Positions 6,858-27,659 of a stretch of 64,000 nucleotides of DNA are shown one piece after another. Positions within the stretch are counted from its first letter, which is position 1. Every line of letters starts with the position of its first letter. Location of the stretch: assembly GCA_965204755.1 (NCBI GenBank), contig OZ242011.1, positions 2,304,001 to 2,368,000 on the forward strand, in the 5' to 3' direction. The DNA comes from Candidatus Marinacidobacterium sp. GTDB lineage: Bacteria > Acidobacteriota > Vicinamibacteria > Marinacidobacterales > Marinacidobacteraceae. The notes beneath the pieces were generated by a model. The model searched no databases, was not told where the DNA came from, and saw only the letters and a list, made by a program, of their open reading frames with translations. The position numbers were made by a program, and so were the translations under genes.

Positions 6858-8046
6858 GGTCCTCGTCGGCGCGAACGCGAGCGGAAAGAGCACTCTCTTC
6901 GACGCCCTGAGTTTCCTCGAGGGTCTCGTCGATGTCGGTCTCTTCAAGACCATAGAGAGCCGCGGTGGCAACTTCCAGGATCTCGTCTGGAAGCGCCCCG
7001 AGAGGGCCCTCGGCTTCGAATTAGCCGTGGAGATCGAAATCCCTTCGTCCGGACTCGCGGTGTACGCCGACGGACGATACGACCGCGTGCGCTACGAGGT
7101 CGAGATTCGCGAAGACACCTCTCGGGGACTCCACATCGCGCGGGAGCAGTGGTTTCCCCTCTCCGCCGATCCTACCGAGGACCGTGTGAGAGATCGCTTC
7201 CCCGATCCGCCGACACCGCCGGACACTCTCTTCACGCGTTTCGGGACCGGTCAGTCCGTGTCCGCCCCGAACGATCTGCCCGGAGGGGGTGACCGGACGC
7301 CCTTGGAGGTCGCTTACCCGGTCAAGGGGCAGAATCGTGAGTCGCTGCTCTCGGCTCTCAGGCGTCTTCCTGCCGTGCCCGGTGACGATTTCGCCGTGCA
7401 CCATTGGTTGAAGGGGGAACTGGGAGGCACGGTAGGCATGTCTCTCGACACCGACGCCCTCCGAAGGCCGAGTCCCCCAAACATGTTCCGTTACCCGCTG
7501 ACGCGTAGCGGCTCCACCTTGCCTTGGCTCGTTGATCGGTTGAGAGCCGAAGAGCGCGAGGACTACGAGGAATGGCTCCACCATGTGACCGCGTTCCTTC
7601 CCGACATCAGCAGCGTCGAGACGGTAGTTCGGCCGGAAGATCGACACGCGTATCTGGTCGTGCGCTACGCCTCCGGCCTCTTCGCGCCCGCTTGGGCCGT
7701 GTCCGACGGGACGCTTCGATTGCTGGCGCTGACGCTCCTCGCCTATCTTCCGTCGGAAACCGTTCCTTGCCGGCGATTCTTCATCGAAGAGCCCGAGAAC
7801 GGTCTCCATCCGGATGCGGTGGATGCAGTGTACGACTCGCTGGCTTCGGTGTACGACCACCAAGTTTTCGTGGCGACACATTCTCCCGCGATCCTGAGGC
7901 GCGCCTACCCGGAGGAGATCTTCGTCTTCGCCCGCGTCGAGGACGACACGACGGATATCGTGCGCGGCGACCGCCACCCGATGTTGAGGGAATGGAAGGA
8001 GAATGTGGATACGACGGCCCTGTTCTCGACGGGAGTCTTCGGTTGA
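6787..8046 (+). CDS. ABC/OLD-type ATPase, MADS MAD3-like (copy 1)
   Basis: Walker A GANASGKST, signature VSDGTLR, Walker B IEEPENGLHP, H-loop ATHSP. N-terminal MIRRFQALGYRC..LDRFQVLVG and C-terminal DIVRGDRHP match my recollection of MAD3-family proteins. Confidence 0.8.
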   Translation: MIRRFQALGYRCFRYVDLELDRFQVLVGANASGKSTLFDALSFLEGLVDVGLFKTIESRGGNFQDLVWKRPERALGFELAVEIEIPSSGLAVYADGRYDRVRYEVEIREDTSRGLHIAREQWFPLSADPTEDRVRDRFPDPPTPPDTLFTRFGTGQSVSAPNDLPGGGDRTPLEVAYPVKGQNRESLLSALRRLPAVPGDDFAVHHWLKGELGGTVGMSLDTDALRRPSPPNMFRYPLTRSGSTLPWLVDRLRAEEREDYEEWLHHVTAFLPDISSVETVVRPEDRHAYLVVRYASGLFAPAWAVSDGTLRLLALTLLAYLPSETVPCRRFFIEEPENGLHPDAVDAVYDSLASVYDHQVFVATHSPAILRRAYPEEIFVFARVEDDTTDIVRGDRHPMLREWKENVDTTALFSTGVFG

Positions 8047-8849: not shown

Positions 8850-10106
8850 ATGATCCGCCGCTTCCAGGCCCTCGGCTACCGCTGCCTCCGGTATGTGGAC
8901 CTCGAACTCGACCGGTTCCAAATCTTGGTCGGCGCGAACGCCAGCGGAAAGAGCACGATGTTCGACGCCGTGCAGTTTCTGGCCGACTTGGTCACCCGCG
9001 ACCTGCTGCGATCGGTGAACAAGCGAACGGACAACTTCCAGGACTTGGTCTGGAATCGGCCCGAGCGGGATCTGCGTTTCGAGTTGGCGCTGGAAGTCGA
9101 GATGCCGGACAGCGTGCGAAGCCTCTGTGCGAGCGACGAAGGCTACGACCGCCTGCGGTATGAACTGGCCGTGCGCGAGCACTCGCCGACCGATCTGCGC
9201 ATCGAGCAGGAACGGTGGTTCCCCGTGATTTCCTCCGCGCCTTCCATCGATCCGGATCGGGCTAGGTTTCCCGACGCTCCGGCGCCGCCCGGCACGATCC
9301 TGACGAAGTTCGGGCAGACTCCGGGCCTCTCTTCGCCCGGGGCTCTGCCCGGGGGAGGTGACCGAGGGACGCTCGGCGATTTTCTCTGGCTCGGTCGCGA
9401 AGAGAGCGAGTTGCACCATTGTTCGGTTCTCGGTCGGTCGGCGTCACTTCCGAACGACCAGCCTCTCCTGGCGTGGCTGAGAACGACACTCGGTCGGATC
9501 GAACTCGTCGCCCTCGACAGCAAAGTCCTTCGTCGTCCCGACCCGGCGGGCGGCGGGAATGGCGACTTGGGCGGGGACGGCGGCGGCCTGCCGTGGATCG
9601 TGGATCGTTTCCGCGCAAACGACCCGGGGGCGTACGAAGAATGGTTGGGCCACCTGCGTACGGCGATACCCGAGATCGAAGGCGTGGAAGTCGTCAAGCG
9701 TCCCGAAGATCGCCACGCCTATCTCAGGTTGCGTTACCGCTCCGGGCTCTCGGCGCCGTCGTGGTCACTGTCCGACGGCACGCTTCGACTGCTGGCGCTC
9801 ACCATCCCTTCCTATCTCCGGCAGAACAGACCTCTTTCCGTAATCGAGGAACCGGAGAACGGGATCCATCCGATGGCGCTCGACGCGCTGTACGCCTCGC
9901 TCTCGTCGGCCTACGGATCGCAGGTGTTCGCCGCCACGCACTCCCCGGTGCTCCTGAAGATGGCGCAGCCCGAAGAAGTCCTGTGCTTCGCCCAGGACGC
10001 GAGCGGGGCGACGGACATCGTTCGCGGTGACCGCCACCCGCTGTTGGCGGACTGGCGCGGCAGCGTGGACACGACGCTGCTGTTCGCCACCGGCGTGATC
10101 GGATGA
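8850..10106 (+). CDS. ABC/OLD-type ATPase, MAD3-like (copy 2)
   Basis: GANASGKST, LSDGTLR, IEEPENGIHP and ATHSP; clear paralogue of 6787-8046. Confidence 0.8.
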   Translation: MIRRFQALGYRCLRYVDLELDRFQILVGANASGKSTMFDAVQFLADLVTRDLLRSVNKRTDNFQDLVWNRPERDLRFELALEVEMPDSVRSLCASDEGYDRLRYELAVREHSPTDLRIEQERWFPVISSAPSIDPDRARFPDAPAPPGTILTKFGQTPGLSSPGALPGGGDRGTLGDFLWLGREESELHHCSVLGRSASLPNDQPLLAWLRTTLGRIELVALDSKVLRRPDPAGGGNGDLGGDGGGLPWIVDRFRANDPGAYEEWLGHLRTAIPEIEGVEVVKRPEDRHAYLRLRYRSGLSAPSWSLSDGTLRLLALTIPSYLRQNRPLSVIEEPENGIHPMALDALYASLSSAYGSQVFAATHSPVLLKMAQPEEVLCFAQDASGATDIVRGDRHPLLADWRGSVDTTLLFATGVIG

Positions 10107-10789
10107 GAGAACCCGAACGCGAGGGCGACCTGGTCGTTCTCGTCGCCGACGCAGACACGCGGGAAACGGTCGATTCGATCCTGTCGCGCCCGCGGGACTT
10201 GGGAATCCGTTCCATCGCTTACCGGATCGAGCGCCACCCGAATCGGGATCCGGGATGTCGGTTGCAGTCGGTGGAGTTCCTCCGAAAATTCCTGAGGGGC
10301 TTCCGGCATACGCTCGTCGTCTTCGATTACGAAGGGTGCGGCAGCCGAGAGCCTCCGCGCCGTGTTCGGGACCTCGTCACGGATGACCTCGAAAGAAACG
10401 GATGGAAGGGCCGGGCGCACGCTACCGTGATCGCTCCGGAACTCGAAATCTGGGCGTGGGGCGACCCGACCGGCTTGGCCGGCGTCCTCGGGTGGGACGG
10501 CCCGTCGCTTCGCCGGTTCATGGCAAAGAGGCGTTTCGGTGTCCCCGGCGGGGCCAAACCACACTCGCCCAAGACGGCGTTCCGGCAGATGGTGCTCGGC
10601 GCGCCGGCCGCTTCTCGCAAGTCGCCGTCCTCGAGGCTCTTCGGACAACTCGCCGCGGTGGCCCGGCTGGACGGTTGCCGGGACCCGGCGTTTCGCGACC
10701 TGCGGCGCGCGCTCGGCGCTTGGTTTCCGCTCGAGCCGTCCGGCGCTCCGCGCGGCCGAGGACCCGGCGGCGCCGCGGTAAGGCGCTGA
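10103..10789 (+). CDS. MAD4-like protein (copy 2)
   Basis: DLVVLVAD, RDPGC, LVVFDYEG, APELEIWAW and CRDPAF; ATGA-coupled to the ATPase. Confidence 0.78.
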   Translation: MREPEREGDLVVLVADADTRETVDSILSRPRDLGIRSIAYRIERHPNRDPGCRLQSVEFLRKFLRGFRHTLVVFDYEGCGSREPPRRVRDLVTDDLERNGWKGRAHATVIAPELEIWAWGDPTGLAGVLGWDGPSLRRFMAKRRFGVPGGAKPHSPKTAFRQMVLGAPAASRKSPSSRLFGQLAAVARLDGCRDPAFRDLRRALGAWFPLEPSGAPRGRGPGGAAVRR

Positions 10790-10853: not shown

Positions 10854-11597
10854 CTACTTCCTGGCGGCGCAGGAATCGGCGTGGGCGGCGAAGTCGAGTG
10901 GGGCGGGTGGAGTGAAGGTGACGGCGTACGCCCCTTTCGGAGCGGGGTGTACATGGCTGTGGCCCGTCGCGTGGGCGAACCACCCGTTGTCTTCGCCGAT
11001 CCACAACTCGTTCCCCCGGATGCGGATTTTCCCGTTCCAGCGGTCGCCGAGCGGGACTTCGTCCAACTTCCGCAGGACGATCCGTTCGCGGACGGCGGGG
11101 CTGGTCGCGCCTCGCCGCGCGGCAGGCGCCGGCTGCATCTCCTCGGCGAACTCGATGACGGCCAACAACAGGTTGCGGAAGGATCCCGAACCGCCTCCGC
11201 TTTCCGAGATGAAGAACACCTGGACGCCGGAGTCGGTTCGCCCCACATACTGGTAGCCGAAGTAGGAAGCGGGGCCGTAGCCGCTCACCATCGGTTCCAC
11301 CCTCAGGAAGGGACACTCTCCTTCCACCGGAACGATCTCCACTTCGTCGTCGTAACGGTCGTCGCCTTCGACCTCCGTGAGCGAAACCACGGTCGGACTG
11401 CTGCTCGCGTTGAACGGTGTGGAAATCTCCTGGACGATCCGCGGATGCACGAACGGAGCGCGGGCGAAGGAACGCGCGGCGGCGATCGTCCGCACCGGGA
11501 TGGCGGCCGGCTGTTCGGCCGGAGCGAAAACGGCGGCCGCCGTCGGCGAGAGCCCCGCCGCGCCGAACAGGGCGGCGACGAAGAGGGTGTTCCTCAT
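10854..11597 (-). CDS. Hypothetical exported protein
   Basis: Signal-peptide-like N-terminus (MRNTLFVAALFGAAGLSPTAAA); protein-like core (FGYQYVGRTDSG, GGGSGSF, PLGDRWNG); AAAGGAG RBS; ATGA overlap with the upstream gene. Confidence 0.75.
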   Translation of the reverse strand: MRNTLFVAALFGAAGLSPTAAAVFAPAEQPAAIPVRTIAAARSFARAPFVHPRIVQEISTPFNASSSPTVVSLTEVEGDDRYDDEVEIVPVEGECPFLRVEPMVSGYGPASYFGYQYVGRTDSGVQVFFISESGGGSGSFRNLLLAVIEFAEEMQPAPAARRGATSPAVRERIVLRKLDEVPLGDRWNGKIRIRGNELWIGEDNGWFAHATGHSHVHPAPKGAYAVTFTPPAPLDFAAHADSCAARK

Positions 11598-12847
11598 GGG
11601 TGTTTCTCCTTTCCGGTCTCCCGCCGGCGTTGCGGCCCGGGGAGGTCGTCGGTCCGGGGCGGCCCCGGGCGGTCGTCGCAGCGGTCCGGGTCGGCGCCGC
11701 AGCGGAGAGCGGCCTCCGCCTCATCCACGGCGACGGTCAGATCCGAAGTCGCCAGACGCGCCTTTTTCCAGGTATCCAGCGCGCGGCGGTGGCGCCGGTA
11801 GAGCGCGGCGGACTCGTCGTCGGTGACGACCGGAATCTCGAGGGCGAACGCTGCGAACTTCGACATCATGGACGCTTGGAAGTACTCGGCCGAGAGGGAT
11901 GGTCGGACGGACTCCATCGGCACGGCGCACTCGGCGTCCGTGAGTCGGACACCACCGATCAGGGTCGGCCAGAAGTCCACATCGAACAGTCGGATGACCG
12001 CGCTGAAACCCATTACGCGGTCCCATACGCTCCTCACGGCGGCGTCGGCGCGAGCGAGTCGGTCCGCCCAAGCGACCTGAGTCTCCTCGACCCGCAGCCA
12101 CGCGTTGCGAGTGGCCGCCTGCATTGCTTCGAGGTCGGCGCGCAGTCGGTCGAGACTCAGGCCCTCGACCTCCCACGGCGCTTGCGGCGCGCCATCGTCA
12201 GGGGCCGCACGGGCGAAAGCGCGGGCAGCGGCGTACTGCCATAGAAGTTCCCGTCGTTCGCTCTCCGCGGCGGCCCGAAGGGCGGCGGTTCGATTTCGCC
12301 GGTACTGGACGAAATTCAGGTCGGCGGTGACTTCCAAGGCGCTTTCCATTGCGGGGATATCCAGTTCTACGGGACTCCGCTGCCACGGAGAGTGCGAGAC
12401 ATCGAGGAAACCCAGATAGGCGCTGACCCAACTTCGGTAATCGAACGGCAGTTCGGACGACATTTCATTGGCCAACTCCATGAACCGCCAAGCGCCGCGT
12501 TCGCACTGCTCGGCTGCCACCCGGCGAAGGCGGGCTTCCATGGACGCGACCCAAGCCTCGTGCGCCTCCGGGTATCGCTCGATGATCACTTCCACCGTCT
12601 CGTTCTCGCCTACCGACAGGGGCTCCCACACGACTCCCATCGCGAAGTCGGCGTACCCGTCGGGGTCTTCGGCGCGCATCAGGTCCGTATCCGGGGCATC
12701 GAGGTCGGCTGCGGGCGCGCCGTCGCCTTCGCGGCTCGGCGCGGGGCGGTGACCGGCGCCCTCGTCGTCCGGCCGGGTTTCGTCGGCGGGTTGGCCGAGG
12801 GTCGCCGCGGCGAGGACGACGGAGAGGAGGAGCGAAAGGGCAGTCAT
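11594..12847 (-). CDS. Hypothetical exported, largely helical protein
   Basis: Signal peptide MTALSLLLSVVLAAATLG; 417-aa ORF coupled to the downstream gene. Confidence 0.7.
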   Translation of the reverse strand: MTALSLLLSVVLAAATLGQPADETRPDDEGAGHRPAPSREGDGAPAADLDAPDTDLMRAEDPDGYADFAMGVVWEPLSVGENETVEVIIERYPEAHEAWVASMEARLRRVAAEQCERGAWRFMELANEMSSELPFDYRSWVSAYLGFLDVSHSPWQRSPVELDIPAMESALEVTADLNFVQYRRNRTAALRAAAESERRELLWQYAAARAFARAAPDDGAPQAPWEVEGLSLDRLRADLEAMQAATRNAWLRVEETQVAWADRLARADAAVRSVWDRVMGFSAVIRLFDVDFWPTLIGGVRLTDAECAVPMESVRPSLSAEYFQASMMSKFAAFALEIPVVTDDESAALYRRHRRALDTWKKARLATSDLTVAVDEAEAALRCGADPDRCDDRPGPPRTDDLPGPQRRRETGKEKHP

Positions 12848-12886
12848 GCGGGAGGTCCGTTCAGGGCGCGAAGCGCGGGGGCGCGG

Positions 12887-13717
12887 TCAGGGGAGGAGCG
12901 GAGAGCGGCGGCGGAGGCGGATTTCGATGGTGCGGCGGGCCGGGTTGTCGCCCGGGTCGCTGCCGTCCGCGAGGCCCCCGTCGCCGGGGAGGAGGGTTTG
13001 CCCGGCGGAGAGCGCGAGCACCAGGTAACCGCGCTCTTCGAGGAGCGGGGCGAGTCGGCGGGCGACCGCGGCGGCGCGCGCGAAGGCGAGCCCCACATTG
13101 TCGGCCGGCCGCAGCGGCCGGTAGTCGCCGGTGAGGTACTCGCCGAGCGCCTCGTCGAGATTGCTTCGGCCGCCGATGGGCCGCTCGTCGGTGTGGCCGA
13201 TGACCTCGACCACATCGGCGGCGTATTCCTCCGCGTACCTCTCGATGAGCGGAACGACTTCGGCGCGGAGGCGTTGCGCGAACTCCGAAGAGATCCGGTT
13301 CGTCGCCGAGGGGAAGACATACCCGTCCGCTTCCCGCAGCCGGATGATCGGCGGCCACCGGTGTCCGGCGGCATTCCCCGGCTCGGCCGAGACCGCTTCG
13401 TTCGCGCGGCGGGACGCCGAAACCGGCGCCCCGTCGGGATTCCCCCGTCCGTCGGCGGAGTGGCTCGACGCCGTTTCGACCGGCGCCGGCGACCCGGCGT
13501 CGGGCGGGGCCCCGACCGCGGCGTCCGCGGCGTCCGCGCCCGCCGCGGTCGTTTCCGCGAACCGCAGTCCCGGTTCGGTGTCCGCGGCGGTCCAACTGAA
13601 CGCGAGCAGCAGCAACACCAGGATGAAGGTGATCACCAGCATGATCTCGAGGGCGCTCGTCCCGAAGATCCGCGCCCGCCGGACCTCGCGGTCGAACGCC
13701 AGCGTCGAAGGCTTCAT
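12887..13717 (-). CDS. MotB/ZorB-like protein: single TM helix plus OmpA-like peptidoglycan-binding domain
   Basis: N-terminal TM (SALEIMLVITFILVLLLLAF), low-complexity linker, then OmpA_C-like motifs YVFPSATNRIS, VEVIGHTD, NVGLAFARA and RRTIEIRL. ATG at 13717 overlaps the upstream stop (ATGA). Confidence 0.8.
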   Translation of the reverse strand: MKPSTLAFDREVRRARIFGTSALEIMLVITFILVLLLLAFSWTAADTEPGLRFAETTAAGADAADAAVGAPPDAGSPAPVETASSHSADGRGNPDGAPVSASRRANEAVSAEPGNAAGHRWPPIIRLREADGYVFPSATNRISSEFAQRLRAEVVPLIERYAEEYAADVVEVIGHTDERPIGGRSNLDEALGEYLTGDYRPLRPADNVGLAFARAAAVARRLAPLLEERGYLVLALSAGQTLLPGDGGLADGSDPGDNPARRTIEIRLRRRSPLLP

Positions 13718-14805
13718 TCCGACTTCCGCGAGGCCTCCCGATCCCCCCGCGGGCGTCCGGTTCCGTTCGGTATCGGGGCCACCCACTCGAAGAACCGTCC
13801 GAACACGCCTCCCGACCGCCGGTCGCGCGCGATCGTCTCGTTCAACCGATCCACCGCCTGCGTGAGCCCGCGGATCGCCGGGCCGGCGTCCACCCGGACC
13901 CGGGGTTCGAGGTCCGTCAACCGGTCGAGCGCGGCGTGGAGTTTCTCGACCGTCTCGAGGGATCGCCGTTCCCGGAGATCCGCCTGCCGCGCCGTTTCCG
14001 ACAGGGTCGCGCCGAACGCCCGCACTTCGGAACCGAGCGCGCCGGCCGCCTGACCGGTCGAGCGCCGGACCTCGGTCAACCACTCGACGAGCGCCTCCGC
14101 GCCCTCGTTCAACCCGTCGGCGGCCTCGCGGACCTGCCGGGAGGCGAGTTCGGCGGCGCGGGAGATGCCGGCCGCCGCCTCTTCCAGACCCTTGCCGGAA
14201 GTCTGCGCCGAACGCGTGAACGCTTCGAGCCCTTCCGGCAACTCGGCGGCCCGCTGGCGCATGATCGCCAGCAACTGTTCGAGTTGCCCGGTCGCCGCGT
14301 CCGCCTGCCGGTTCAACTCGAGCGCCGCGTCCTGCAGCCGCCGCCGCATCTCCCGCTCGTACGCGTCCGCGTCGCCGCCCCGCTGCGTCAACAGCACCCG
14401 CATCGTCACCCCGAAGAGCGTGGTTACGAGGGCGACGCCGAACGCCGGCAGGAACGAAACGATCGCTTCGCGCGCCGCGTTCTCGCCGGGCCTCAGGTGG
14501 AAGCCGAGGACGACCAGCCCGGAGATGAGCGAGGCGATCGTGAACAGGAAGCCGAGGTAATGGATGTTGTCCCCGGCCTCGTGCCGATCCATGCCCAGGC
14601 GGTCGAGGCAATACCGGCGGTAGCCGATCATCACCGCGACCATCGCCGCGCTCGGCGCGGCCAGCGAGAACAGCGGCCGGCCCGGGCCGAGGAAACCGAA
14701 CACCACGGTCAGCAGCAGCGCGCCGAGCACCGCGAGGACGAAGAAACGGTCGTGCGCCGCCTCCCCGGCCCGCGCCGCCCGGGCGTTACCGGTCGGCGCC
14801 GACAT
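13714..14805 (-). CDS. MotA/ExbB/ZorA-like ion-channel protein with a long helical C-terminal tail
   Basis: Several N-terminal TM segments with channel-like motifs YLGFLFTIASL and FGVALVTTLFGV, followed by ~200 aa of heptad-like helix; lies directly upstream of the MotB-like gene. Confidence 0.72.
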   Translation of the reverse strand: MSAPTGNARAARAGEAAHDRFFVLAVLGALLLTVVFGFLGPGRPLFSLAAPSAAMVAVMIGYRRYCLDRLGMDRHEAGDNIHYLGFLFTIASLISGLVVLGFHLRPGENAAREAIVSFLPAFGVALVTTLFGVTMRVLLTQRGGDADAYEREMRRRLQDAALELNRQADAATGQLEQLLAIMRQRAAELPEGLEAFTRSAQTSGKGLEEAAAGISRAAELASRQVREAADGLNEGAEALVEWLTEVRRSTGQAAGALGSEVRAFGATLSETARQADLRERRSLETVEKLHAALDRLTDLEPRVRVDAGPAIRGLTQAVDRLNETIARDRRSGGVFGRFFEWVAPIPNGTGRPRGDREASRKSE

Positions 14806-15673
14806 GGCGGACCTCCGTGACCGTGGCGTCCCGTTCGCCGAAGTAGCGGTTCCACCAGGCGAGGTGTTCCGCGCCCTGGATGTCCGGGATGCTCAGGTAC
14901 TGCATGCGGGCGTAGATCAGGCTCACTTCGGCGCCGCCGAAGCCGGCCGCGCCCGGACTGGGCGGGGGCGGGGCCTCCGCCCGTTCGGCGCCGGGATGGA
15001 TGCCGAACCACGAAGTCAGCCCGAAGTTCTGCGGCGCGACGAAGTCCGAGACCACCGTCAGCGACCGGGCGGCATGCGCATACCGAGGGTCGTCGAAGAC
15101 CATCCGCGCCACTCCGTCCAGCGAATGGAGGAGGCTGTGGGAACGGTCGGGTGACCAACCCGATCGCTCTTCGAGGAGCGCGCGCAGCGGCTCGGAGAAC
15201 GCCTCCCGGTAGCGCTGCCGGGCGAGTCTCGGGTTCGCGTAGAGCGCGCTCGCCGTCGAACCGTCGCCCGGATTGCATTTCTCGATGAGCGGTTCGAGCT
15301 CCTCGCGCGCGTCGTAGGCGACTTCGTGGACCACGACCTTCGCGTAGAGCGGCAGGGCCTCCAGTTCCTCCACCAGCAGCCGCCGGACCTGGCGCGCCGT
15401 GTTCGGATCCATCGGCGCGAACTCGCCGGTCCCGGCCCACACCCGGCGGTTTCGTTCGAGGAGCACCGCGTGCACCCGGGGTATGAGCGCCGGATCGGCC
15501 GGGCAGAGCGTCGCCTCGTCCAGGTCCGCCGCGGCGGGCGCATTCCACCGAAGCGCCCCCAAGCCGACGAGGAACACCGCCAGCAAACCGCCGAGCAGCC
15601 AGGCCGCGCGGTCGCCGCCGTTCCGGCGGGAACGGCGCCGCATCGGCCGCCGCTTTCCGTACCTACGGGCCAT
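14786..15673 (-). CDS. Membrane-anchored, probably vWA-fold hypothetical protein
   Basis: Basic N-terminus plus TM (AWLLGGLLAVFLVGLGAL); alpha/beta pattern with LCP, KCNP and LTVVSDF. Fold assignment is inference. Confidence 0.6.
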   Translation of the reverse strand: MARRYGKRRPMRRRSRRNGGDRAAWLLGGLLAVFLVGLGALRWNAPAAADLDEATLCPADPALIPRVHAVLLERNRRVWAGTGEFAPMDPNTARQVRRLLVEELEALPLYAKVVVHEVAYDAREELEPLIEKCNPGDGSTASALYANPRLARQRYREAFSEPLRALLEERSGWSPDRSHSLLHSLDGVARMVFDDPRYAHAARSLTVVSDFVAPQNFGLTSWFGIHPGAERAEAPPPPSPGAAGFGGAEVSLIYARMQYLSIPDIQGAEHLAWWNRYFGERDATVTEVRHVGADR

Positions 15674-15676
15674 CGC

Positions 15677-17062
15677 TCAACTCCTCTGGCCGGACTCGAA
15701 CGAGTCGCCGGCCTGCCGCACCGCCTCGGAGAGCGCGCCCCGCGCCCGTTCGGCCGCGGTCTGCACTTCGGCCGGCGGCGCCGCCTCCGTTTCCGGCAGC
15801 GGCGCCGGCGCGGGGAGCGGCTCCAGGCGCACCGGATCGAGTTCGGGGCAGCAGGTCAGCCGCGACCGCTCGATCTTCCGTTCCAGGATGCTCCGCTCGC
15901 GTTCGAGTTCGTCGGCGAGCGCGGCGAAACCGCCTCGCGCCTGCTCGTCCCCGGCGAGCCCCGCGCGGTGGTTCTCGACCGCCGACCGGATGTCCCGAGC
16001 GCCGTCCTCCCGCGCCTCGTCCAGGGCCTCCATCGCTTCGACGCGCGCGTCGTCGAACGCCTCCCGGGTTTCGAGGAACTTCCGCGTCCTCCGGCTGTAT
16101 CCCGGATACGGATCCTCCATCGAGTACCCCTTCCAGAACGCGATGCCGGCGAACAGCATCCCGATCACCGCGAAGACCCACGACCGGAAGTCCGCGATAC
16201 CCAGGTAGTCCGCGGTGAAGGTGTCCCAGGCCAGCGACCCGGCCGCGGCCGCGTTCGAGTAGTCGGCGGCGCCCATCGCCTGGCGGAAGTGCCCGACGAA
16301 CAGGTTGAAGAAGAAGAGCCCCAGGCCGCAGCCGATGACGGCCAGCGCTCCGAAACCCTTCGCGAGCGGCGAACGATGGTTGGCGTAGCGGGCGAGGTTG
16401 CCGCCGAAGAAGGCCCCGCCGATGTTGACCACCGCGATCGTCGCGGCGACGCCCCAGGCTTCGATGAGGCCGCCCGCCGCGCCGCCCGCCAGCAGGGCGG
16501 CGTTCCCGACCGTCTCCAGCGCCGCGGCGCAGGCGGCGACCAGGCAGTGCCGGACGCGGTGCTCCGGGTACTGCGCTTCGCGCTCGATACCCTCGGTCTT
16601 GCGGAAGTCCTCGAGGTCGTCCTCGCGCCGCCGCGCTTCGTCGCGGGCGCGGCCGATCTCGCCGCGGCGCTCCTCCGCCTCGGCGCTGACGGCGGCCAGC
16701 GCCCGATCCCGCGCTTCCGCGATGTCCGCGACCGCGTCGCGCCGGTAGAGCCGCGCCCCGTACGCCGCGCGGTGCTCCTCGAAGCAGGAGCGCAGCCGGT
16801 GGTCGTGGACGGCCGCCTCTTCGGCGAGGACCGCCCGCGCGACCGCCGGTTCCGCGCCGTCCGGCGACCGCCGCAGCCGCTCCAACCTCTTCTCGAGTGA
16901 GCGTTCGTCGAACGCCGGCCACCGCCCGCCTTCCGCCGCGGCGGAAGCGACCGCCCCCGGCAAGGCGTCGGCTCGCGCCGGCAGCCCGGAGACGAGCCCG
17001 CGAAGGCCCTCGACGGCGCGGCTCCGCGGCGCGGGCCGCGCTTCGGTCAGCGCAGTGGACAT
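15677..17062 (-). CDS. Multi-pass membrane protein flanked by coiled coils
   Basis: N-terminal charged helices, about 4 hydrophobic segments, DPYPGY motif, C-terminal coiled coil; GAAGGAG RBS upstream. Confidence 0.75.
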   Translation of the reverse strand: MSTALTEARPAPRSRAVEGLRGLVSGLPARADALPGAVASAAAEGGRWPAFDERSLEKRLERLRRSPDGAEPAVARAVLAEEAAVHDHRLRSCFEEHRAAYGARLYRRDAVADIAEARDRALAAVSAEAEERRGEIGRARDEARRREDDLEDFRKTEGIEREAQYPEHRVRHCLVAACAAALETVGNAALLAGGAAGGLIEAWGVAATIAVVNIGGAFFGGNLARYANHRSPLAKGFGALAVIGCGLGLFFFNLFVGHFRQAMGAADYSNAAAAGSLAWDTFTADYLGIADFRSWVFAVIGMLFAGIAFWKGYSMEDPYPGYSRRTRKFLETREAFDDARVEAMEALDEAREDGARDIRSAVENHRAGLAGDEQARGGFAALADELERERSILERKIERSRLTCCPELDPVRLEPLPAPAPLPETEAAPPAEVQTAAERARGALSEAVRQAGDSFESGQRS

Positions 17063-17124
17063 GGGTATCCGTCTCCTTCAGGCTCGGAACGAGCCGCTCA
17101 CGGTGGTTCCCGGCCCCGGCATTC

Positions 17125-20106
17125 CTACTCACCCTGCTCGATGGCGATCTCGATCCGCCGCGCGGCGGTGAGGTTCGACCGGTCGACGGCGAACTCCGCA
17201 TCCGGCTCCCCCAGCGCGTCCGCCAGCATTCCGCACCGGCGCTGCAGCGCGTTGACGCGACCGGCGTGCATCCCCGGCGCTTTCGCGCGGCTGGCGTACT
17301 CCGACGCCGCGCCCAGCAGCGCGAACGCCGTGTCGCCGTGCGTGTCGCGATACCGGTCGGCCAGTCGCCGGAGATGCTGACCGACGCGCCGCCAGTACCG
17401 CGCGGAATGCGATCGCGCCCTTCGCCGGCGTTCGCTTCGGGAACCGGCGGTCAGGCGATCGAGCGCGCTCGGCGGGTCGAGGTCGAGGGCGCGCGCCAGA
17501 CCCGCCAGGAACTCCGGCGCGGGCACCGTCACTTCCGCCAGCCGCTCCAGGCGCTCCCGCATCCCCCGGGGGTCGAAGCGGCTCAGGCCGTAGGTCGTCA
17601 GCGGCTCCCGCTCCAGGTCCTCGATCCAGGCGTCGAGCGGGCGCCGATGGGGGTCGGTGTAGGTGACGCCGTCTTCGCCGATCATCCCGTTGGCGCAGAT
17701 CAGCCGGTGGACGCCGATCGTGAACCGCAGTTGCTGCGTCTTGTTGTAACTGTTGCTGACGCGCAGGAAGGGCGTCCAGGCATCGTCGTTCCAGAGCGCG
17801 AAGTTCAACGACTCCGCGGCGAGGTCGGCGTGCATGAAGGTCCGCTTCCGCGGCATCGTCAGGTTGATGGGACGCAGTTCCCGCGCGGCGGCCTCGCCGA
17901 ACGCCAGCGAGAAGACCCGCCGCCCGGCCTCGATCGCCTCTTCGTTCTTGATGAGCCGGTAGCCCCCCGATACCCGCGCCAGGTCGCCGCCGCCGCCGTT
18001 GGTGACGGCGGCGGGCGGCAAGGCCTCGGCCGGCGCATGGAGGCGCTGACGCGCGAAGTCCCCGCCCCCGAGGTCGGGGGAGCGTCGCCGCCGCCGGGCC
18101 CGGTAGCCGCCGGACACGATTCCCAGCACCCGTCCGCGTTCGCGGTCCTCCACGATGGCCCGATGGGTGGGGACCGGTCGGTCGTCGGGGAGCCGGAGCG
18201 GCACATCGCGCACCGGGAAGAACGCGTCGAGCCGCAGTCGCTCTTCGGGCGACCGCGCTTCGCCGAACGGCTCGCCGAGGCCTCCGGCGAACAACACCGC
18301 GGGAGGGGGCGCCGCGCTCGGGTCCGTCTCGACCGGCTGCAGCGCCGGCCACGGGCCGAACGCGCTCCGAGTGTCCCCGGCCTCCGCCGACGGGGCTACG
18401 CCGGCGGGGCCGCCGGCGCGGCGCGCGGGCTCCGAAGCCGAGAACACGCTCCGCCCGAAGGTGTCGGTACGCGGAGGGGCCAGCGCGCCCCGCCGCTGCT
18501 CGCTCAACCCGCGCGACCGCGCGTCCTCTTCTTCGCCCAGAAGGAGCAGGTCGGTCCACGGCGACACGATGCCTTCCGCCCGCGCCAGCCGCGCCGCGGC
18601 GTCGAGGGGCATCCGCGCCAGGGCCAGGCCGGCCGCGAGAGGCGCCACGCCGGGGAACACCGCGCCCGTCGCGACCTCCGGGCCGCCCGCTTCCGCCGAC
18701 CAGGAGGCGGTGATCCGGGCGCCGCCCCGCACGGCCTCGATGACCTCCCCCGACGGGACGACTCCGGCGTCGTCGGTGGACACCCGCTCGCCGGGGATTC
18801 GGGCGCCGCGAAGACCGGCGACCGCCGCCGCGAGAGCGGCGACGATGTCCGTCCCGCCGGTGATGAAGAAGTCTCCGCCGGACTCCACCGCCAGCCGCGC
18901 GAGCGAGCCGTCGAGACTGTCCTCCCCCACCAGCACCACGAAGAGCCGGCGCCCGGCGCGGAGGAACCGCTCGGTGTCCAGGCCGCGGCTCTTGCCGTCG
19001 GTGACCACGAGGAGGTCCGGGGCCTCGGTGCGCGAAGCGACCGTCTCGAGGACGCGGCTGATCTCGTCGCTGCCGTGGGGCGGGGACAGGCGCTCGACCG
19101 CCCGCCGGAAGGCCCTCTCTCCCCGGTCCCCTTCTTCCGCGTCCGGAGAGATCCGGTGGGCGCGGCTGTCGAACTCCCACAACTCCAGCCCGTCGCCGCC
19201 TCCGAGATCGTCCGCGAGGTCCCGGAGCGCCTCCGTCAACGCCCTCCACTTGGTGAGCGCCGCGTTCCCGGTGCACGGATCGTCCATGGATCGGGAGCGA
19301 TCCACCAGGACGGCCGCTCTCGCCGTTCCGTCCCCGGTCGCGGGTTCGATGCGCATCGTCACCATCCGGCCGTCGGCGGCTTCGCCGACGAGCGCGCCGA
19401 CCGCCCCGTCCGCGACCTCGATGTCCACCGGCGCGTCGGTGGGCGCCTGCAGGTCGAACGAGCCGGCTCCCGCCGCGCCGCCCGGCCCGACGGGGGTCGC
19501 CTCCCCGTTCACCCGCACCCGACCTCCGTCGCAGACCACCCGGAGCCGGGCGGTTCCCGGAACGCCGTCCGTCCGCGGCCCGCTGGCGTCGTCCGGGCCG
19601 ATCGGGCCCAGCCCCCGGCCGATCGTCATCGGTATGCGCAGACGCCCGATCGCTCCCTGCTGCTGCAGCGGCGTCGTCCAGGTCCCGGAGATTTCGACCT
19701 CCGCTCCCGCCGGCACGGACGACACGGCCACCAAGTGGATTCCCGGCAGCAACTCTTCGTGCCGCACCGCGAGGAACCCGCCCTCCAACGCCTCTTCGTA
19801 AGCGCTCTCCGCCTCTCCCTTCGGGAGGGCCGACGCCCGGACTTCTTGGCCGGCGACCTCCGTCCGCAGCCGGAACAGCACCGCGGCCGAGGGAACCGGG
19901 AATGTCAGCAGCGCTTCGATGGGTTGTTCTTCGTCGTTCCGGAAAGTCCGGGTCGTGGTCACCGTCGCCAGTCCCCGCCGGATTTCCACTTCGAGGGCCG
20001 TGCGGGCGAGCGGGTCGAGGTCGGCGCCGTTCTCGGTCTCCCGCTCGGCGAGCAGAGCGGCCAAGGGGTCCACCAGGCGAGGCGGACTGTCGGAGTTCAG
20101 GGTCAT
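17125..20106 (-). CDS. VIT + vWA (MIDAS) protein fused to a C-terminal DUF932-like domain
   Basis: VIT (ATVTTTRTFRNDEEQPIEALLTFPVP..AYEEALEGG), vWA (VLVDRSRSM, VVTDG), and C-terminal GRVLGIVSGGY..LIKNEEA..VSNSYNKT..VHRLICANGMI typical of DUF932. Confidence 0.8.
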   Translation of the reverse strand: MTLNSDSPPRLVDPLAALLAERETENGADLDPLARTALEVEIRRGLATVTTTRTFRNDEEQPIEALLTFPVPSAAVLFRLRTEVAGQEVRASALPKGEAESAYEEALEGGFLAVRHEELLPGIHLVAVSSVPAGAEVEISGTWTTPLQQQGAIGRLRIPMTIGRGLGPIGPDDASGPRTDGVPGTARLRVVCDGGRVRVNGEATPVGPGGAAGAGSFDLQAPTDAPVDIEVADGAVGALVGEAADGRMVTMRIEPATGDGTARAAVLVDRSRSMDDPCTGNAALTKWRALTEALRDLADDLGGGDGLELWEFDSRAHRISPDAEEGDRGERAFRRAVERLSPPHGSDEISRVLETVASRTEAPDLLVVTDGKSRGLDTERFLRAGRRLFVVLVGEDSLDGSLARLAVESGGDFFITGGTDIVAALAAAVAGLRGARIPGERVSTDDAGVVPSGEVIEAVRGGARITASWSAEAGGPEVATGAVFPGVAPLAAGLALARMPLDAAARLARAEGIVSPWTDLLLLGEEEDARSRGLSEQRRGALAPPRTDTFGRSVFSASEPARRAGGPAGVAPSAEAGDTRSAFGPWPALQPVETDPSAAPPPAVLFAGGLGEPFGEARSPEERLRLDAFFPVRDVPLRLPDDRPVPTHRAIVEDRERGRVLGIVSGGYRARRRRRSPDLGGGDFARQRLHAPAEALPPAAVTNGGGGDLARVSGGYRLIKNEEAIEAGRRVFSLAFGEAAARELRPINLTMPRKRTFMHADLAAESLNFALWNDDAWTPFLRVSNSYNKTQQLRFTIGVHRLICANGMIGEDGVTYTDPHRRPLDAWIEDLEREPLTTYGLSRFDPRGMRERLERLAEVTVPAPEFLAGLARALDLDPPSALDRLTAGSRSERRRRARSHSARYWRRVGQHLRRLADRYRDTHGDTAFALLGAASEYASRAKAPGMHAGRVNALQRRCGMLADALGEPDAEFAVDRSNLTAARRIEIAIEQGE

Positions 20107-20534
20107 GGGCTATCTCCTTCGGAGTCGGGGGCGGCGGGGGCGGCGGGGGCCGCGGTTTCGGTCGGGGAAGGCGCCGCGGACGGCGCCAACGCCTCGGTGA
20201 GGACTTCGCGCACCTTCTCCACCAGCGGCTCCACCGGCTCGCCGGAGGCCAGTCGTTCAGGGGCGATGACGAGGCTGATCCCATCCACGATCGGGCGCGG
20301 AAAGCCGGACTTCGCCTTCCGCAGTTGACGGATGGCGGGCAGGGAGAAGTCCATTTCCCGGAGCCTCCGGTATTCCCGGAGCGCTTTCAGGTGTTCCTCG
20401 CCGTACTCGGCGAACTTGCGACCGCCGCCCGGCTTCGGACACACCTTGCTGGAGATGAGGAACCGCACATGCCGCGGGGTGAACCGGAGGCCGGATTCCT
20501 CCTGCAGGCGGGCGACGAGTTCAGCGAGAGTCAT
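20103..20534 (-). CDS. MerR-like helix-turn-helix regulator
   Basis: TPRHVRFLISSKVCPKPGGGRKFAEYGEEHLKALREYRRLREMDFSLPAIR; ATGA-coupled to the VIT gene. Confidence 0.8.
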   Translation of the reverse strand: MTLAELVARLQEESGLRFTPRHVRFLISSKVCPKPGGGRKFAEYGEEHLKALREYRRLREMDFSLPAIRQLRKAKSGFPRPIVDGISLVIAPERLASGEPVEPLVEKVREVLTEALAPSAAPSPTETAAPAAPAAPDSEGDSP

Positions 20535-20540
20535 CTTTAC

Positions 20541-20574
20541 GACACAGGCTACTGTCGGAAAAAGGCTCTGTCAA
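20541..20574 (-). promoter_or_regulatory. Sigma70-type promoter of the minus-strand operon, overlapped by a GACA-N8-TGTC palindrome
   Basis: Minus strand reads TTGACA (20574-20569), 17 bp, TAGCCT (20551-20546), 11 nt, ATG. Palindrome at 20541-20556. Confidence 0.75.
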
Positions 20575-20706: not shown

Positions 20707-23700
20707 GTGAAAACCCCGACCGTCTTCGACCTCTGCCAGCCCCGGAAGGAGGTCCTGGAGGGTCGAGTCTCCGACGACCAGTTCGCCGCCGACCTCGCCG
20801 CCGTCCTCGACGAGACGAAGGCCGCCCCGGCGAACTACCGGGACCCGGCGCGGTTCTTCGAGAACACCTACCCCACCCGCGGCCTCAGGAGCCTCCTCGA
20901 GAGCGTCTGCGGCCGCCTGAGCGGCGCCGCCGGCGACGCCCCGCCGATCTTCCGCCTCGACACCTCCTACGGCGGCGGCAAGACCCACGGGCTGATCGCC
21001 CTGGCCCACGCCGCCGGCGCCCCCTCCGAAGTCCCCGGGGACTTCCTGCCCCCGGCCCTTCGCCCGAAGAAGACGGTGCGGGTGGCGGCGTTCGACGGCG
21101 AAAACGCCGACCCGGCGAACGGGAGGGCGCTCGGCGGCTTCCGCCCGAAGACCCCGTGGGGCGAGATCGCCGTCCAACTCGCCGGCCGGCCGGGGTTCGA
21201 TCGGGTGCAGAAGGGCGACGAAGAGGGGATCGCGCCCGGCGCCGACACGATCGCCGCCCTCTTCGGCGGCGAACCTGCGCTGATCCTGCTCGACGAGTTG
21301 GCGGTGTACCTGCGGAAGGTGAAGGGCCGCCCCGGCGCCGCCGGCCAACTCACCGCCTTCCTCACCAGCCTCTTCAAGGCCGTCGAGACCGCGCCCGAAG
21401 CGGCGCTGGTGTTCACGCTGGCCATCGGCAAGCACGGCCCGATCGACGCCTACGCCGACGAGCACCGCGCCCTCGCCGACGACCTCTCCGAGTTGCGGAG
21501 CGTCTCCGCCCGGAAGGCGACCCTCCTGAACCCCACCGAGGAGGACGAGACCGCCCCGGTGCTCCGCCGCCGCCTCTTCGAGCGGATCGACGAGTCCGGG
21601 GCCGGGGAGGTCGTCGCCGCCTACCGGAGGGTCTGGAAGCAGCACGCCGGCGAGAACGAACTCTCCCCGGTGGCCCGAGCACCGGAGACCGTCGAACACT
21701 TCCGCGCCGCCTACCCCTTCCACCCGGAACTGCTGGACACGCTCACCCGCAAGACCTCGACGCTCGCCGACTTCCAGCGCGTCCGGGGGATGCTGCGGCT
21801 CCTCACCCGGACGATCGCCCACCTCTGGAGCGAGCGCCCGGCCGACGCCGCGGCGATCCACCTCCACCATGTCCCCGTCGGCAGCCCGGCGAACCGCCGG
21901 GAGTTGCTCGCCCGGCTCGGGCAGAAGACCTTCGAGTCCGCCCTCGACAACGATGTGGAGGGGTCCAAAGGCCCCTCGCTCGCGCAGCGGCTCGACGCCG
22001 ACCACCACTCCGGCCGCCCGCCCTACGCGCTCTACGCCGCGCGGGCGGCCTTCCTCCACTCCTTCGCCTTCAACGAGGGCCTGAAGGGCTGCTCGCCCCG
22101 CCGCCTCCGCTACTCCATGGTCGGCCCGGCCACCGACTTCGCCTTCATCGAGGAGGCCCGGAAACTGTTCCAGGAACAGTCCGCCTACCTCGACGACCGC
22201 CCCGGCGCCCCGCTCCGGTTCCACGCGGAAGCCAACCTCAACAAGATCCTGAGCAACCACGAAGCGATAGTGGACGCCGAAGAAGTCCGCGCCGAACTGC
22301 GCGACCGCATCCAGCGGATCTTCGGCGGCAAGAACCGCGACCTCGAGCCGGTCTTCTTCCCCGGCGGCCCCTCCGATGTCCCCGACGACCCGAGCGACCG
22401 CCCCCGGCTGGTCGTGATCTCCCCGGACGCCGTCGACATCCGCGGCGACGACGACGCGGCCCCGGAAGCCATCCTCCGGATCCACCAGCGCAAGGGCGGC
22501 GAGGAGAAGTCACTCCGCCGCCGCCGGAACCACTTGGTCTTCCTCGCCCCCGACTCCGGGCGGAAGGAGAAGATGCGGCAGCGGGCCGCGCGTCTCCTCG
22601 CGCTGCGGTCGCTGAAGAAGCCGGAGCACCTCGACGACCTGGCCGACCACCAGCAGGCCAAGGTCAAGGAGTGGGCGCAAGGCGCCGAACAGGAAGTCGC
22701 CCTCGCGGTCCACCAGTGCTACCGCCGACTCTTCTACCCGTCCACCGGCCTCCAGCCGGGCCGGGGCGACCTGGCCCACGCCGTCCTCGACGACCCGGCG
22801 CACTCGGAGAAACCGGGCGACGGCCAGCGCGCCGTCGTCCGCCACCTCCGCGAGGACGCCGAGAAACTCCGCCTCCCGGAAGATCAGCCGGACGCGCCGG
22901 ACTATGTGCGCGACAAGACCCCGCTGAAGACGAAGGGCGAGATGACCACCGCCGACCTGCGGGACGAGTTCCGCTGCGTCCCGGCCCTCCCGATGCTGAT
23001 CGGCGACCAGGTGTTCTGCCGGGGCGTCGTCCTGGGCGTTGAGCAGGGCCGGTTCGCGTACCGCAGCGGCGACCTCCTGTTCGGCCCGGGCGACCCGGAG
23101 ACCGTGATCACCGTGGACGACGAGTCGCGGGTCGCGACCATCCAGTACGCGAAGAACCGGGGGTTCTGGCCGCGAAAGCCCCCTCCGCCGCCGGAGCCGG
23201 AGCCGACACCACTGGGGCCGGCGCCGACACCGCCGAGGCCGGCGCCGACACCGCCGGGACCGACGCCGACACCGCCGGGGCCGGTCCCTCCGGGTCCGAC
23301 GCCGCCGACGCCGCAACCGACCCCGACGGAATTCCTGGCCGAAGCGCCCATGCGCGAAGCGCTGACGCGGCTGGCCGAGTGGGCGGGGACGAACGCCCCG
23401 AACGGCCTCGCCTCCATCAGCATCCGACCCCAGGAGCCCACCGACGGCTTCCGGCTCATCCGCGGCGCCAACAACCCGACCGTCCCCGGGGACAAGACCG
23501 CGAAGATGGAGGGCAACTACGAAACCGCCGGCGGCGGCGCCTACTGCCTCCAGGAGTTCGCCGGCCCGCTCGCCGACGCCGGGCCGGTGGCGGACTTCCT
23601 CGACCAGCAGTTCCGCGACGCGGCCTCGTCCGACCTCACCGCCACCGTGACCCTGGCCTTCCCCGAAGGGGCGCCGGCCGGCGCGGCCTGGGACAAACTC

Positions 23701-23763
23701 ACGAGCCAACTCACCCGCTTCGTGGGCGGCCAGGCGGTGGTGAAGGCCGCCCCGAGAAAGTGA
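20707..23763 (+). CDS. DUF499 AAA+ ATPase of a restriction-like (DUF499/DUF1156/SNF2) defence system
   Basis: FAADL, FFENTYPTRGL, Walker A TSYGGGKTH, Walker B LILLDEL, YPFHPEL, FQRVRGMLRLL; Pro-rich linker near the C-terminus. Confidence 0.88.
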   Translation: MKTPTVFDLCQPRKEVLEGRVSDDQFAADLAAVLDETKAAPANYRDPARFFENTYPTRGLRSLLESVCGRLSGAAGDAPPIFRLDTSYGGGKTHGLIALAHAAGAPSEVPGDFLPPALRPKKTVRVAAFDGENADPANGRALGGFRPKTPWGEIAVQLAGRPGFDRVQKGDEEGIAPGADTIAALFGGEPALILLDELAVYLRKVKGRPGAAGQLTAFLTSLFKAVETAPEAALVFTLAIGKHGPIDAYADEHRALADDLSELRSVSARKATLLNPTEEDETAPVLRRRLFERIDESGAGEVVAAYRRVWKQHAGENELSPVARAPETVEHFRAAYPFHPELLDTLTRKTSTLADFQRVRGMLRLLTRTIAHLWSERPADAAAIHLHHVPVGSPANRRELLARLGQKTFESALDNDVEGSKGPSLAQRLDADHHSGRPPYALYAARAAFLHSFAFNEGLKGCSPRRLRYSMVGPATDFAFIEEARKLFQEQSAYLDDRPGAPLRFHAEANLNKILSNHEAIVDAEEVRAELRDRIQRIFGGKNRDLEPVFFPGGPSDVPDDPSDRPRLVVISPDAVDIRGDDDAAPEAILRIHQRKGGEEKSLRRRRNHLVFLAPDSGRKEKMRQRAARLLALRSLKKPEHLDDLADHQQAKVKEWAQGAEQEVALAVHQCYRRLFYPSTGLQPGRGDLAHAVLDDPAHSEKPGDGQRAVVRHLREDAEKLRLPEDQPDAPDYVRDKTPLKTKGEMTTADLRDEFRCVPALPMLIGDQVFCRGVVLGVEQGRFAYRSGDLLFGPGDPETVITVDDESRVATIQYAKNRGFWPRKPPPPPEPEPTPLGPAPTPPRPAPTPPGPTPTPPGPVPPGPTPPTPQPTPTEFLAEAPMREALTRLAEWAGTNAPNGLASISIRPQEPTDGFRLIRGANNPTVPGDKTAKMEGNYETAGGGAYCLQEFAGPLADAGPVADFLDQQFRDAASSDLTATVTLAFPEGAPAGAAWDKLTSQLTRFVGGQAVVKAAPRK

Positions 23764-27610: not shown

Positions 27611-27659
27611 GCCGGCAGGGGACGCGAACCGGGTGCCCGGCGCGTAGGAGGTGGGGGCG

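Follow-up and report, generated by a model that had tools for sequence, protein, structure and literature searches.

Gene layout of the operon

We analysed a stretch of 64,000 nucleotides from Candidatus Marinacidobacterium sp. (assembly GCA_965204755.1, contig OZ242011.1, positions 2,304,001 to 2,368,000), referred to here as the window and numbered from its first letter, and in it a run of eight genes, g1 to g8, whose central four (g3 to g6) form a candidate motor-based defence cassette. The G+C content of the window is ~70%. A codon-position frame plot of G+C at third codon positions (GC3), combined with lists of the open reading frames (ORFs), showed that eight consecutive ORFs are coding, all on the minus strand, from 20534 to 10854. 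The start of g6 was set at the ATG that overlaps the stop codon of g5. The operon is laid out as follows:

20574-20546, minus strand: promoter-like site TTGACA-17-TAGCCT, read from the sequence
20534-20103, minus strand: g1, 143 amino acids, MerR-family helix-turn-helix protein
20106-17125, minus strand: g2, 993 amino acids, VIT-vWA-DUF932 protein
17062-15677, minus strand: g3, core gene 1, 461 amino acids, coiled-coil protein with four transmembrane (TM) helices
15673-14786, minus strand: g4, core gene 2, 295 amino acids, N-terminally anchored vWA-fold protein
14805-13714, minus strand: g5, core gene 3 ("A"), 363 amino acids, MotA/ExbB/TolQ/ZorA-like
13717-12887, minus strand: g6, core gene 4 ("B"), 276 amino acids, ZorB-like
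12847-11594, minus strand: g7, 417 amino acids, predicted to be exported, signal-peptide-like N-terminus
11597-10854, minus strand: g8, 247 amino acids, predicted to be exported, signal-peptide-like N-terminus

Neighbouring genes overlap by 4 nucleotides at g1/g2, 20 at g4/g5, 4 (ATGA) at g5/g6 and 4 at g7/g8, and the remaining junctions are gaps of 62 (g2-g3), 3 (g3-g4) and 39 nucleotides (g6-g7). These coordinates agree with an earlier reading of the same DNA, made from its letters alone (the sequence-only reading), which had described eight co-oriented genes with junctions of 62 bp or less. No terminator-like site was found inside the operon on the minus strand.

The same reading had placed one canonical promoter at the head of the operon. 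The TTGACA-17-TAGCCT site is present and unique, since the pattern TTGACA-N17-TANNNT occurs once in the 64-kb window and in none of 100 shuffles. The word "canonical" is too strong, however, because the -10 hexamer TAGCCT matches TATAAT at three of six positions and a sigma-70 scan of the window calls no promoter at this site. The ATG of g1 lies 11 nucleotides downstream of the -10 hexamer, which would leave the transcript leaderless, or almost so, and without space for a Shine-Dalgarno sequence. GC3 is lower in g7 (0.79), g8 (0.84) and g1 (0.83) than in g2 to g5 (0.88-0.92), which fits a later or separate origin of g1, g7 and g8; by this measure g2 would be like the core.

A four-gene core shared across phyla

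A word-based search returned nine close relatives of g5, and their profile was used for a full HMMER search of 1.84 billion representatives, in which the g5 family comprised 1408 clusters at E ≤ 1e-3 and 201 at E ≤ 1e-10. For the comparison of gene order, 82 loci were used, namely the best 80 of 139 confirmed loci (one genome per species, selected with the peptide YYLGFLFT) together with two plasmid loci; individual loci are labelled L001 and so on. In 73 of the 82, g3, g4, A and B lie in this order on one strand. Seven of the nine remaining loci touch a contig end (one of them, L044, also lacks g4), and the clear exceptions are L016 and L043. Counted gene by gene, g3 is present in 80 loci, g4 in 78 and g5 in all 82 by phmmer, and a g6-like gene in 79 by an iterated profile.

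The loci span Acidobacteriota, Alpha-, Beta- and Gammaproteobacteria, Bacteroidota and Bdellovibrionales, and are also found in Obscuribacterales, Thermodesulfobacteriota, Binataceae and Thermodesulfovibrionia. By tblastn, the g5 gene was detected on 24 alphaproteobacterial plasmid records, which are large and of which 11 are typed as conjugative. In S. fredii and Microvirga, the two genes annotated upstream of it are hypothetical, and the one downstream is labelled "OmpA family protein". BLASTP showed that these S. fredii plasmid neighbours (L001) are homologous to g3 (29% identity, 3e-25), g4 (3e-20) and g6 (42% identity, 1e-32), and all four core proteins of the window match the S. fredii plasmid copies. 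The proposal that the four central genes (17062 to 12887) are the core is therefore borne out by the same order in 73 of 82 related loci. The four-gene core is real, widespread and unnamed.

The A and B proteins resemble stator subunits

Members of the A family have four N-terminal TM helices followed by a helical cytoplasmic tail, and carry two near-invariant motifs, GDNxYYLGFLFTLxSL and FGIALxTTIxGxxLRV. Across 90 A sequences, T89 and T129 do not vary, and hhalign places them on T145 and T178 of TolQ (E 0.0038; for ExbB, E 0.094). According to a review, T145 and T178 of TolQ form a threonine ring that stabilises protonated Asp23 of TolR and is conserved across stators (PMC8928145). The Pfam model MotA_ExbB gave a weak match in 7 of the 90 A members, and the PADLOC model ZorA1 matched 47 of the 90 (best 1.7e-9), for the most part in the tail, a region that coiled-coil models hit as well. 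One protein of 3427 amino acids, P0018, contains 34 separate matches to the A profile, all around positions 102-142 (the TM4 motif), and is either a repeat protein or an artefact.

For g5 itself, the ZorA models of PADLOC gave E values of only 0.005-0.03, and a sequence search of the PDB returned no useful match. The AlphaFold2 (AF2) model of g5 has a predicted local distance difference test score (pLDDT) of 69.5 overall and ~90 in its membrane part; it shows long helices, and the loops that join the four TM helices are short. None of the Foldseek matches for A was significant; the top ten were all TolQ or ExbB (best E 0.088, low TM-scores), with ZorA and PomA following. We read g5 as a divergent but genuine A-type stator subunit.

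The B protein g6 begins with a TM helix that contains Glu24, and a linker connects this helix to an OmpA-like peptidoglycan-binding domain. Across 70 B sequences, Glu24 is the sole invariant column; it sits within the TM helix and, by eye, at what we take to be the position of the essential Asp in MotB, ExbD, TolR (PMC8928145) and ZorB. The window copy matches the OmpA model of TssL (2.9e-4) and no other, and PADLOC gave no ZorB match for it. Among its relatives, the B copies of L009 and L042 match ZorB2 (9.5e-31 and 2.4e-29) and ZorB1 (1.9e-25 and 3.2e-27), the ZorB1 match spans the N-terminal TM region in the B copies of L080 and L001, and Pfam OmpA is above its cut-off in three. At the level of the family, B therefore combines the two features of ZorB, a TM helix with an acidic residue and a peptidoglycan-binding domain, and g6 appears to be ZorB-like through its family.

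With the direct annotation of g5 and g6 as weak as it is, the case for a motor would be thin on direct evidence alone. The family as a whole places the A/B pair, as had been suggested, in the MotAB/ExbBD/ZorAB stator superfamily, closest to ZorB: the invariant threonines of A fall on TolQ T145/T178, Glu24 of B is invariant, and B relatives match ZorB2. These data also bear on the possibility that there is no system at all, and that the eight genes are unrelated neighbours whose likeness to a motor is coiled-coil and TM noise. The weak direct matches of the window proteins would agree with this, as would the LmuB, JetC and apolipoprotein coiled-coil models that also score on the A family. Such a view is already contradicted by synteny, the order being kept in 73 of 82 loci across phyla, and it sits poorly with ZorB matches that reach 1e-31, with the invariance of E24 in B and of T89 and T129 in A, and with the overlapping start and stop codons of adjacent genes. 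We consider it very improbable.

Two further membrane proteins accompany the motor pair

In g3, an N-terminal and a C-terminal coiled coil flank four predicted TM helices, and the protein carries a DPYPGY motif. E183, G198, A206, R260 and P419 are invariant, and N187 and H258 are also conserved. No consistent Pfam family was found over 64 members, the PDB matches were coiled-coil noise, and a protein-cluster look-up with g3 returned clusters without names only. A PADLOC match of g3 to LeoBC (5.7e-5) was not repeated in four relatives and was taken as TM or coiled-coil noise.

The g4 protein starts with a basic N-terminus, followed by one TM helix and a vWA-fold domain. This fold was recognised from structure: no Pfam, PADLOC or PDB sequence model matches g4, and its AF2 model (pLDDT 84.9, predicted TM-score 0.80) gave Foldseek matches to vWA folds with E values of 3.6e-4 to 1e-2 and a probability of ~1.0, including the Sec24 trunk, BatA/BatB-like proteins, collagen VI, TFIIH p44, ITIH1 and VWF A. 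C57 and C133 are invariant, and this cysteine pair, together with the basic N-terminus before the TM helix, fits a periplasmic domain. The membrane-anchored, vWA-like protein of the sequence-only reading is g4, which has the fold and, by prediction, a periplasmic orientation. At five loci, no model of PADLOC (2023) was found to cover g3 or g4.

BatA and BatB resemble g4 in having a TM anchor and a vWA domain (Foldseek 4jdu, 2.1e-3; 3ibs, 4.2e-3). They differ in context, since the eight genes contain no Pfam match to a MoxR ATPase or DUF58. They may also differ in that the motif of g4 that resembles a metal ion-dependent adhesion site appears, by eye, degenerate in the window copy: the family consensus is DLTDP ... 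SPIMES ... VSD, and the window copy seems to have E at the first Asp and an insertion.

Nucleases recur at the cassette

Domain profiles detected a nuclease of the SNase or GmrSD_C type in 42 of the 82 loci. SNase accounts for 34 of these (16 fused to B, 18 separate) and GmrSD_C (DUF1524, His-Me) for 8 (6 fused to B, 2 separate). The B proteins of relatives are often 500-600 residues long with a C-terminal staphylococcal-nuclease or GmrSD_C domain, and the fused nuclease domains lie behind the peptidoglycan-binding domain. Most of the separate nucleases with an intact N-terminus begin with a signal-peptide or lipobox-like segment, and many separate nucleases show a DGDT motif at the start of the domain. 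This topology, a fusion behind a periplasmic domain or a signal peptide, suggests that the nuclease is placed in the periplasm, and the usual effector arm would therefore be periplasmic, unlike that of Zorya I-III. The presence of two unrelated nuclease families at the same position points to at least two independent recruitments. A third nuclease family is found at the cassette in L054, where, immediately upstream of g3 and on its strand, a gene at 6872-7426 encodes a 184-amino-acid phospholipase D (PLD)-family nuclease (PLDc_2 1.5e-27; DrmC-like 1.6e-15).

In the window, the SNase and GmrSD_C profiles found no nuclease, and g7 and g8 occupy that position. We found no match for g7 or g8 in Pfam, PADLOC, NCBIfam or the PDB; their N-termini are, by eye, signal-peptide-like. 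The idea that the two are divergent nucleases was dropped after the SNase and GmrSD_C profiles and hhalign gave nothing. Homologues of g7 are few, with 5 close clusters and none among the 82 loci. The window copy is an atypical acidobacterial variant of the cassette, in which g7 and g8 probably replace the nuclease as alternative periplasmic effectors or adaptors.

The outer genes g1 and g2

At the other end of the operon, g1 matches Pfam MerR_1 (6.4e-7, above cut-off), and g2 matches VIT (9.2e-14) and DUF932 (3e-7) above cut-off and VWA_2 just under it (2.1e-5). PF08487 and PF13519 are precomputed on close g2 homologues, so that g2 carries a VIT domain followed by a vWA domain; its VIT domain also matches that of PARP4 (3.2e-6). 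There are 16 clusters of full-length g2 homologues, with 49-97% identity. By eye, g2 has no signal peptide or TM segment and is presumably cytoplasmic.

Among the 82 loci, phmmer found homologues of g1, g2 and g8 in L003 only. This locus also belongs to Candidatus Marinacidobacterium (Acidobacteriota), and its trpS, scpB and cmk genes are 80-90% identical to those of the window. Its order is an HEC-01A-like gene, two g8 copies, B, A, g4, g3, an extra VIT-like ORF, g2, g1 and DUF499. The two g8 paralogues (5.5e-49 and 6e-45) occupy the same position as g8 in the window, and the locus has no g7 and no nuclease. The extra ORF between g2 and g3 (6673-7677 in L003) shares 39% identity with the VIT-vWA part of g2. 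Such an added VIT-like ORF, the duplicated g8 and the missing g7 argue for rapid turnover of the accessory genes of the island. L003 is an orthologous island and thus gives no independent support for a link of g1 and g2 to the cassette; with recurrence in L003 only, their membership in the cassette is unproven. The suspicion that the outer genes are accretions is in line with this distribution: L003 is the one locus with g1, g2 and g8, and none of the 82 has g7.

This pattern is relevant to a reading of the operon as a fourth Zorya type that works like types I-III, in which the motor would sense the envelope and its cytoplasmic tail would recruit a cytoplasmic effector, the VIT-vWA-DUF932 protein. 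Several observations would suit it: A has a long helical cytoplasmic tail; g2 lies under the shared promoter, with its start overlapping the end of g1, and lacks a signal peptide; the g1-g2 pair adjoins the cassette in L003; and a longest contig of identical length (72443) is recorded for one cluster of g2 homologues and one of g5 homologues. These are offset by the orthology of L003, which is not an independent occurrence, by the absence of g1 and g2 from all 81 other loci, and by the recurrent effector of the family, which is exported or periplasmic. Moreover, DUF932 has no known activity, and the literature retrieved by that term holds, in the portions available, nothing on its function. 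We consider this reading quite unlikely, and the sequence-only view of the VIT-vWA-DUF932 protein as a cytoplasmic, possibly DNA-directed, arm is not supported, given no independent co-occurrence and a recurrent effector that appears instead to be a periplasmic nuclease. The g1 and g2 genes are lineage-specific additions, and may be either regulators of the cassette or a separate module that shares its promoter.

The cassette lies in a defence island

The operon is flanked by defence genes, which were identified in a PADLOC and Pfam scan of the flanks:

6787-8046 and 8850-10106: HEC-01A-like ATPase genes
20707-23763: HmaC/DUF499, divergent from g1
24349-25623: Septu PtuA
26873-27610: Septu PtuB
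27651-30575: HmaB methylase
30688-33909: HmaA PLD-SNF2 helicase

The genes uvrC, trpS, scpB and rluB-cmk lie upstream of the island. With HEC-01A-like genes on one side and the Hma and Septu genes on the other, the defence-island setting is real, and the description of an operon with defence systems on both sides, divergent from a DUF499 operon, was accurate. The second HEC-01A-like gene is followed by a gene for a 228-amino-acid partner (10103-10789) without a family match, and a third HEC-01A-like paralogue is located at 38673-40547; all three are AAA_21/AAA_15 ATPases in one island. Between HmaC and HmaB lie, besides the Septu pair, a DUF7680 gene (23847-24338) and a minus-strand ORF (25947-26849). 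Past HmaA there are a gene without a match (33970-34995), a gene with a weak BrxC/D-like ATPase match (34992-36146) and then a DDE transposase gene on the minus strand (36636-38318). GC3 called ~20 more genes in the part of the window from 40600 to 64000.

PADLOC gave no match to ZorC, ZorD, ZorE, ZorF or ZorG in the eight genes or in the 18 flanking window genes scanned, which agrees with the earlier statement that the operon contains no known Zorya effector. Flagellar genes were absent from the window flanks and from the neighbours scanned at other loci.

To describe the surroundings of the cassette elsewhere, up to two neighbours of at least 150 amino acids were taken on each side, giving 126 proteins from 49 loci. 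Eighteen of them match PADLOC models at E ≤ 1e-10, and setting aside three generic ATP-binding cassette (ABC) ATPases leaves 15 proteins in 12 of the 49 loci. They comprise PD-Lambda-1, type I and type II restriction genes, BrxL, PglZ and Uzume, as well as DrmC- and DrmD-like proteins, a ZacB-like protein and three PDC candidates. Pfam matches among 83 neighbours of nuclease-less loci included transposases, an integrase, a HigB toxin, BrxC/D and many ordinary genes. Of the neighbourhood features that the sequence-only reading had named as a check, co-occurrence of the core genes is firm (73 of 82 loci), whereas the defence genes near 12 of 49 loci, counted without a matched control, are suggestive and not a statistic.

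The mixed surroundings raise the question of whether the cassette is a physiological envelope machine, either for motor-coupled scavenging of DNA in the periplasm or processing of extracellular DNA, or as a Tol/Ton-like transducer with g4 in the role of TolA or TonB. Like TolA and TonB, g4 is anchored N-terminally, and many loci lie beside housekeeping or transport genes (a ribose ABC transporter in P. yeei; tRNA synthetase and ribosomal protein genes). A tblastn search of 50,697 phage records with the A protein of L009 gave no match. Exported SNase-type nucleases also serve nutrition and biofilm turnover. A physiological role is harder to reconcile with the patchy distribution across phyla, plasmids included, and with the swapping of unrelated nuclease families at the same position, since effector swapping at one position is typical of conflict systems. 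It is also at odds with the defence genes, which flank the window copy on either side and occur within the nearest four neighbours at 12 of the 49 loci. We regard this explanation as unlikely.

Comparison with known systems

Zorya consists of a MotAB-related membrane pair, ZorAB, and cytoplasmic effectors, ZorCD, ZorE or ZorFG; a paper of 2025 recognises three subtypes, all with cytoplasmic effectors (PMC11890865). The cassette shares with Zorya a multi-TM A protein with a predicted long helical cytoplasmic tail, a B protein with an acidic TM residue and a peptidoglycan-binding domain, matches of B relatives to ZorB at 1e-25 to 1e-31, occurrence in defence islands and an association with nucleases. 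It differs in several respects. PADLOC finds no ZorC-G in the eight genes, the 18 flanking genes or four related cassettes; g3 and g4 are obligatory extra membrane proteins without a PADLOC model; the acidic TM residue is Glu and not Asp; the A tail is ~220 residues in g5, compared with 500-1000 positions in the ZorA models; and the nucleases are at the periplasmic end of B or carry signal peptides, whereas Zorya effectors are cytoplasmic. The lack of ZorC-G, the two different obligatory partners and the predicted periplasmic effector arm place the cassette outside Zorya I-III. It would nonetheless work most like Zorya, in view of its predicted peptidoglycan-anchored ion motor, conflict context and nuclease link.

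Two other stator systems were compared. TolQRA and ExbBD-TonB resemble the cassette in the alignment of A T89/T129 with TolQ T145/T178, in being the best Foldseek matches of A (TolQ/ExbB), and in having a third partner with one N-terminal TM helix and a periplasmic body, here g4. In contrast to these systems, B of the cassette has an OmpA-like domain, as in MotB and ZorB, g4 has a vWA fold and not the TolA/TonB fold, and A has four TM helices and a long tail. Genes for Pal, TolB or a TonB-dependent receptor were not found among the Pfam-scanned flanks (nuclease-less loci and a few other clusters). MotAB and PomAB likewise have a four-TM A protein, and their B protein combines an acidic TM residue with an OmpA-like anchor to peptidoglycan. 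They differ from the cassette in that the AF2 model of g5 is without the large cytoplasmic domain between TM2 and TM3, flagellar genes are absent from the surroundings scanned, and MotA_ExbB matches weakly, in 7 of 90 A members.

The cassette appears to be unnamed, as had been proposed. NCBIfam (2026) names no window protein, and in R. johnstonii 3841, S. fredii and P. yeei, RefSeq annotates three "hypothetical" proteins and one "OmpA family protein". A survey of MotAB relatives (PMC12505986) splits flagellar from generic transporters and, in the part of the paper available, is without this group. At the level of titles and abstracts, no description of the cassette was found in the literature searched, including papers on ZorAB since 2025, and none was found in PADLOC or Pfam.

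A model for a motor-based envelope defence

On balance, and with some reserve, we think it probable that g3 to g6 encode a Zorya-related module of envelope defence, as yet undescribed, with a ZorAB-like ion-driven stator at its centre. In this model, the complex would be embedded in the inner membrane, B would be attached to the cell wall and the vWA head of g4 would lie in the periplasm. When an invader disturbs the envelope, as in phage injection or perhaps conjugation, the ion path would open, and the resulting movement of the motor would position or unleash a periplasmic effector. The effector would then destroy DNA crossing the envelope, so that the effector arm would lie outside the cytoplasm, unlike in Zorya I-III.

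A number of points weigh against such a module. The link of A to stators is statistically weak (hhalign 0.0038 and 0.094, Foldseek 0.088, no PDB sequence match), many ZorA matches sit in the coiled-coil tail, where LmuB and JetC models score too, and the direct matches of the window proteins are weak (ZorA E 0.005 for A; no ZorB match for B). For the B profile, hhalign comparisons with single E. coli TolR and MotB sequences were not significant (0.18 each). By the two nuclease profiles, 40 of the 82 loci and the window are without a nuclease. Phage DNA normally passes through a channel, and the access of a periplasmic nuclease to it is unexplained; the model also gives no role to the cytoplasmic tail of A or the coiled coils of g3. 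Ordinary genes make up most of the neighbours, and the count of defence neighbours has no matched control. The 50,697 phage records, in turn, contain no match to the A protein of L009. Finally, the proportions reported here may be biased, because the loci were found with a single exact peptide pattern and the best 80 of 139 were kept.

A bolder form of the proposal, which we hold only tentatively, is that the cassette represents a new class of ion-motor immunity, in which a peptidoglycan-anchored, ZorAB-like stator coupled to a vWA sensor head would detect an invader at the envelope and deploy, in the periplasm, a tethered or secreted nuclease against foreign DNA ahead of its arrival in the cytoplasm, with g7 and g8 as the substitute in the window.

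To our knowledge, Zorya is the only defence family with a flagellar-type ion motor, and work on how its motor converts a signal from the envelope into immunity is still under way. The cassette would be a second widespread motor-based system, present in at least 139 species-level genomes by one narrow pattern and in 201 clusters at E ≤ 1e-10. Its different obligatory partners and predicted periplasmic effectors would make it a natural comparison for separating the generic features of such motors from a rewired output. If the nuclease is truly periplasmic, the cassette would provide an inducible defence that acts on foreign DNA ahead of its entry into the cytoplasm, which few systems known to us do. 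If the model is true, two protein families that RefSeq at present lists as "hypothetical", for instance in the model strain Rhizobium johnstonii 3841, would gain a function as well.

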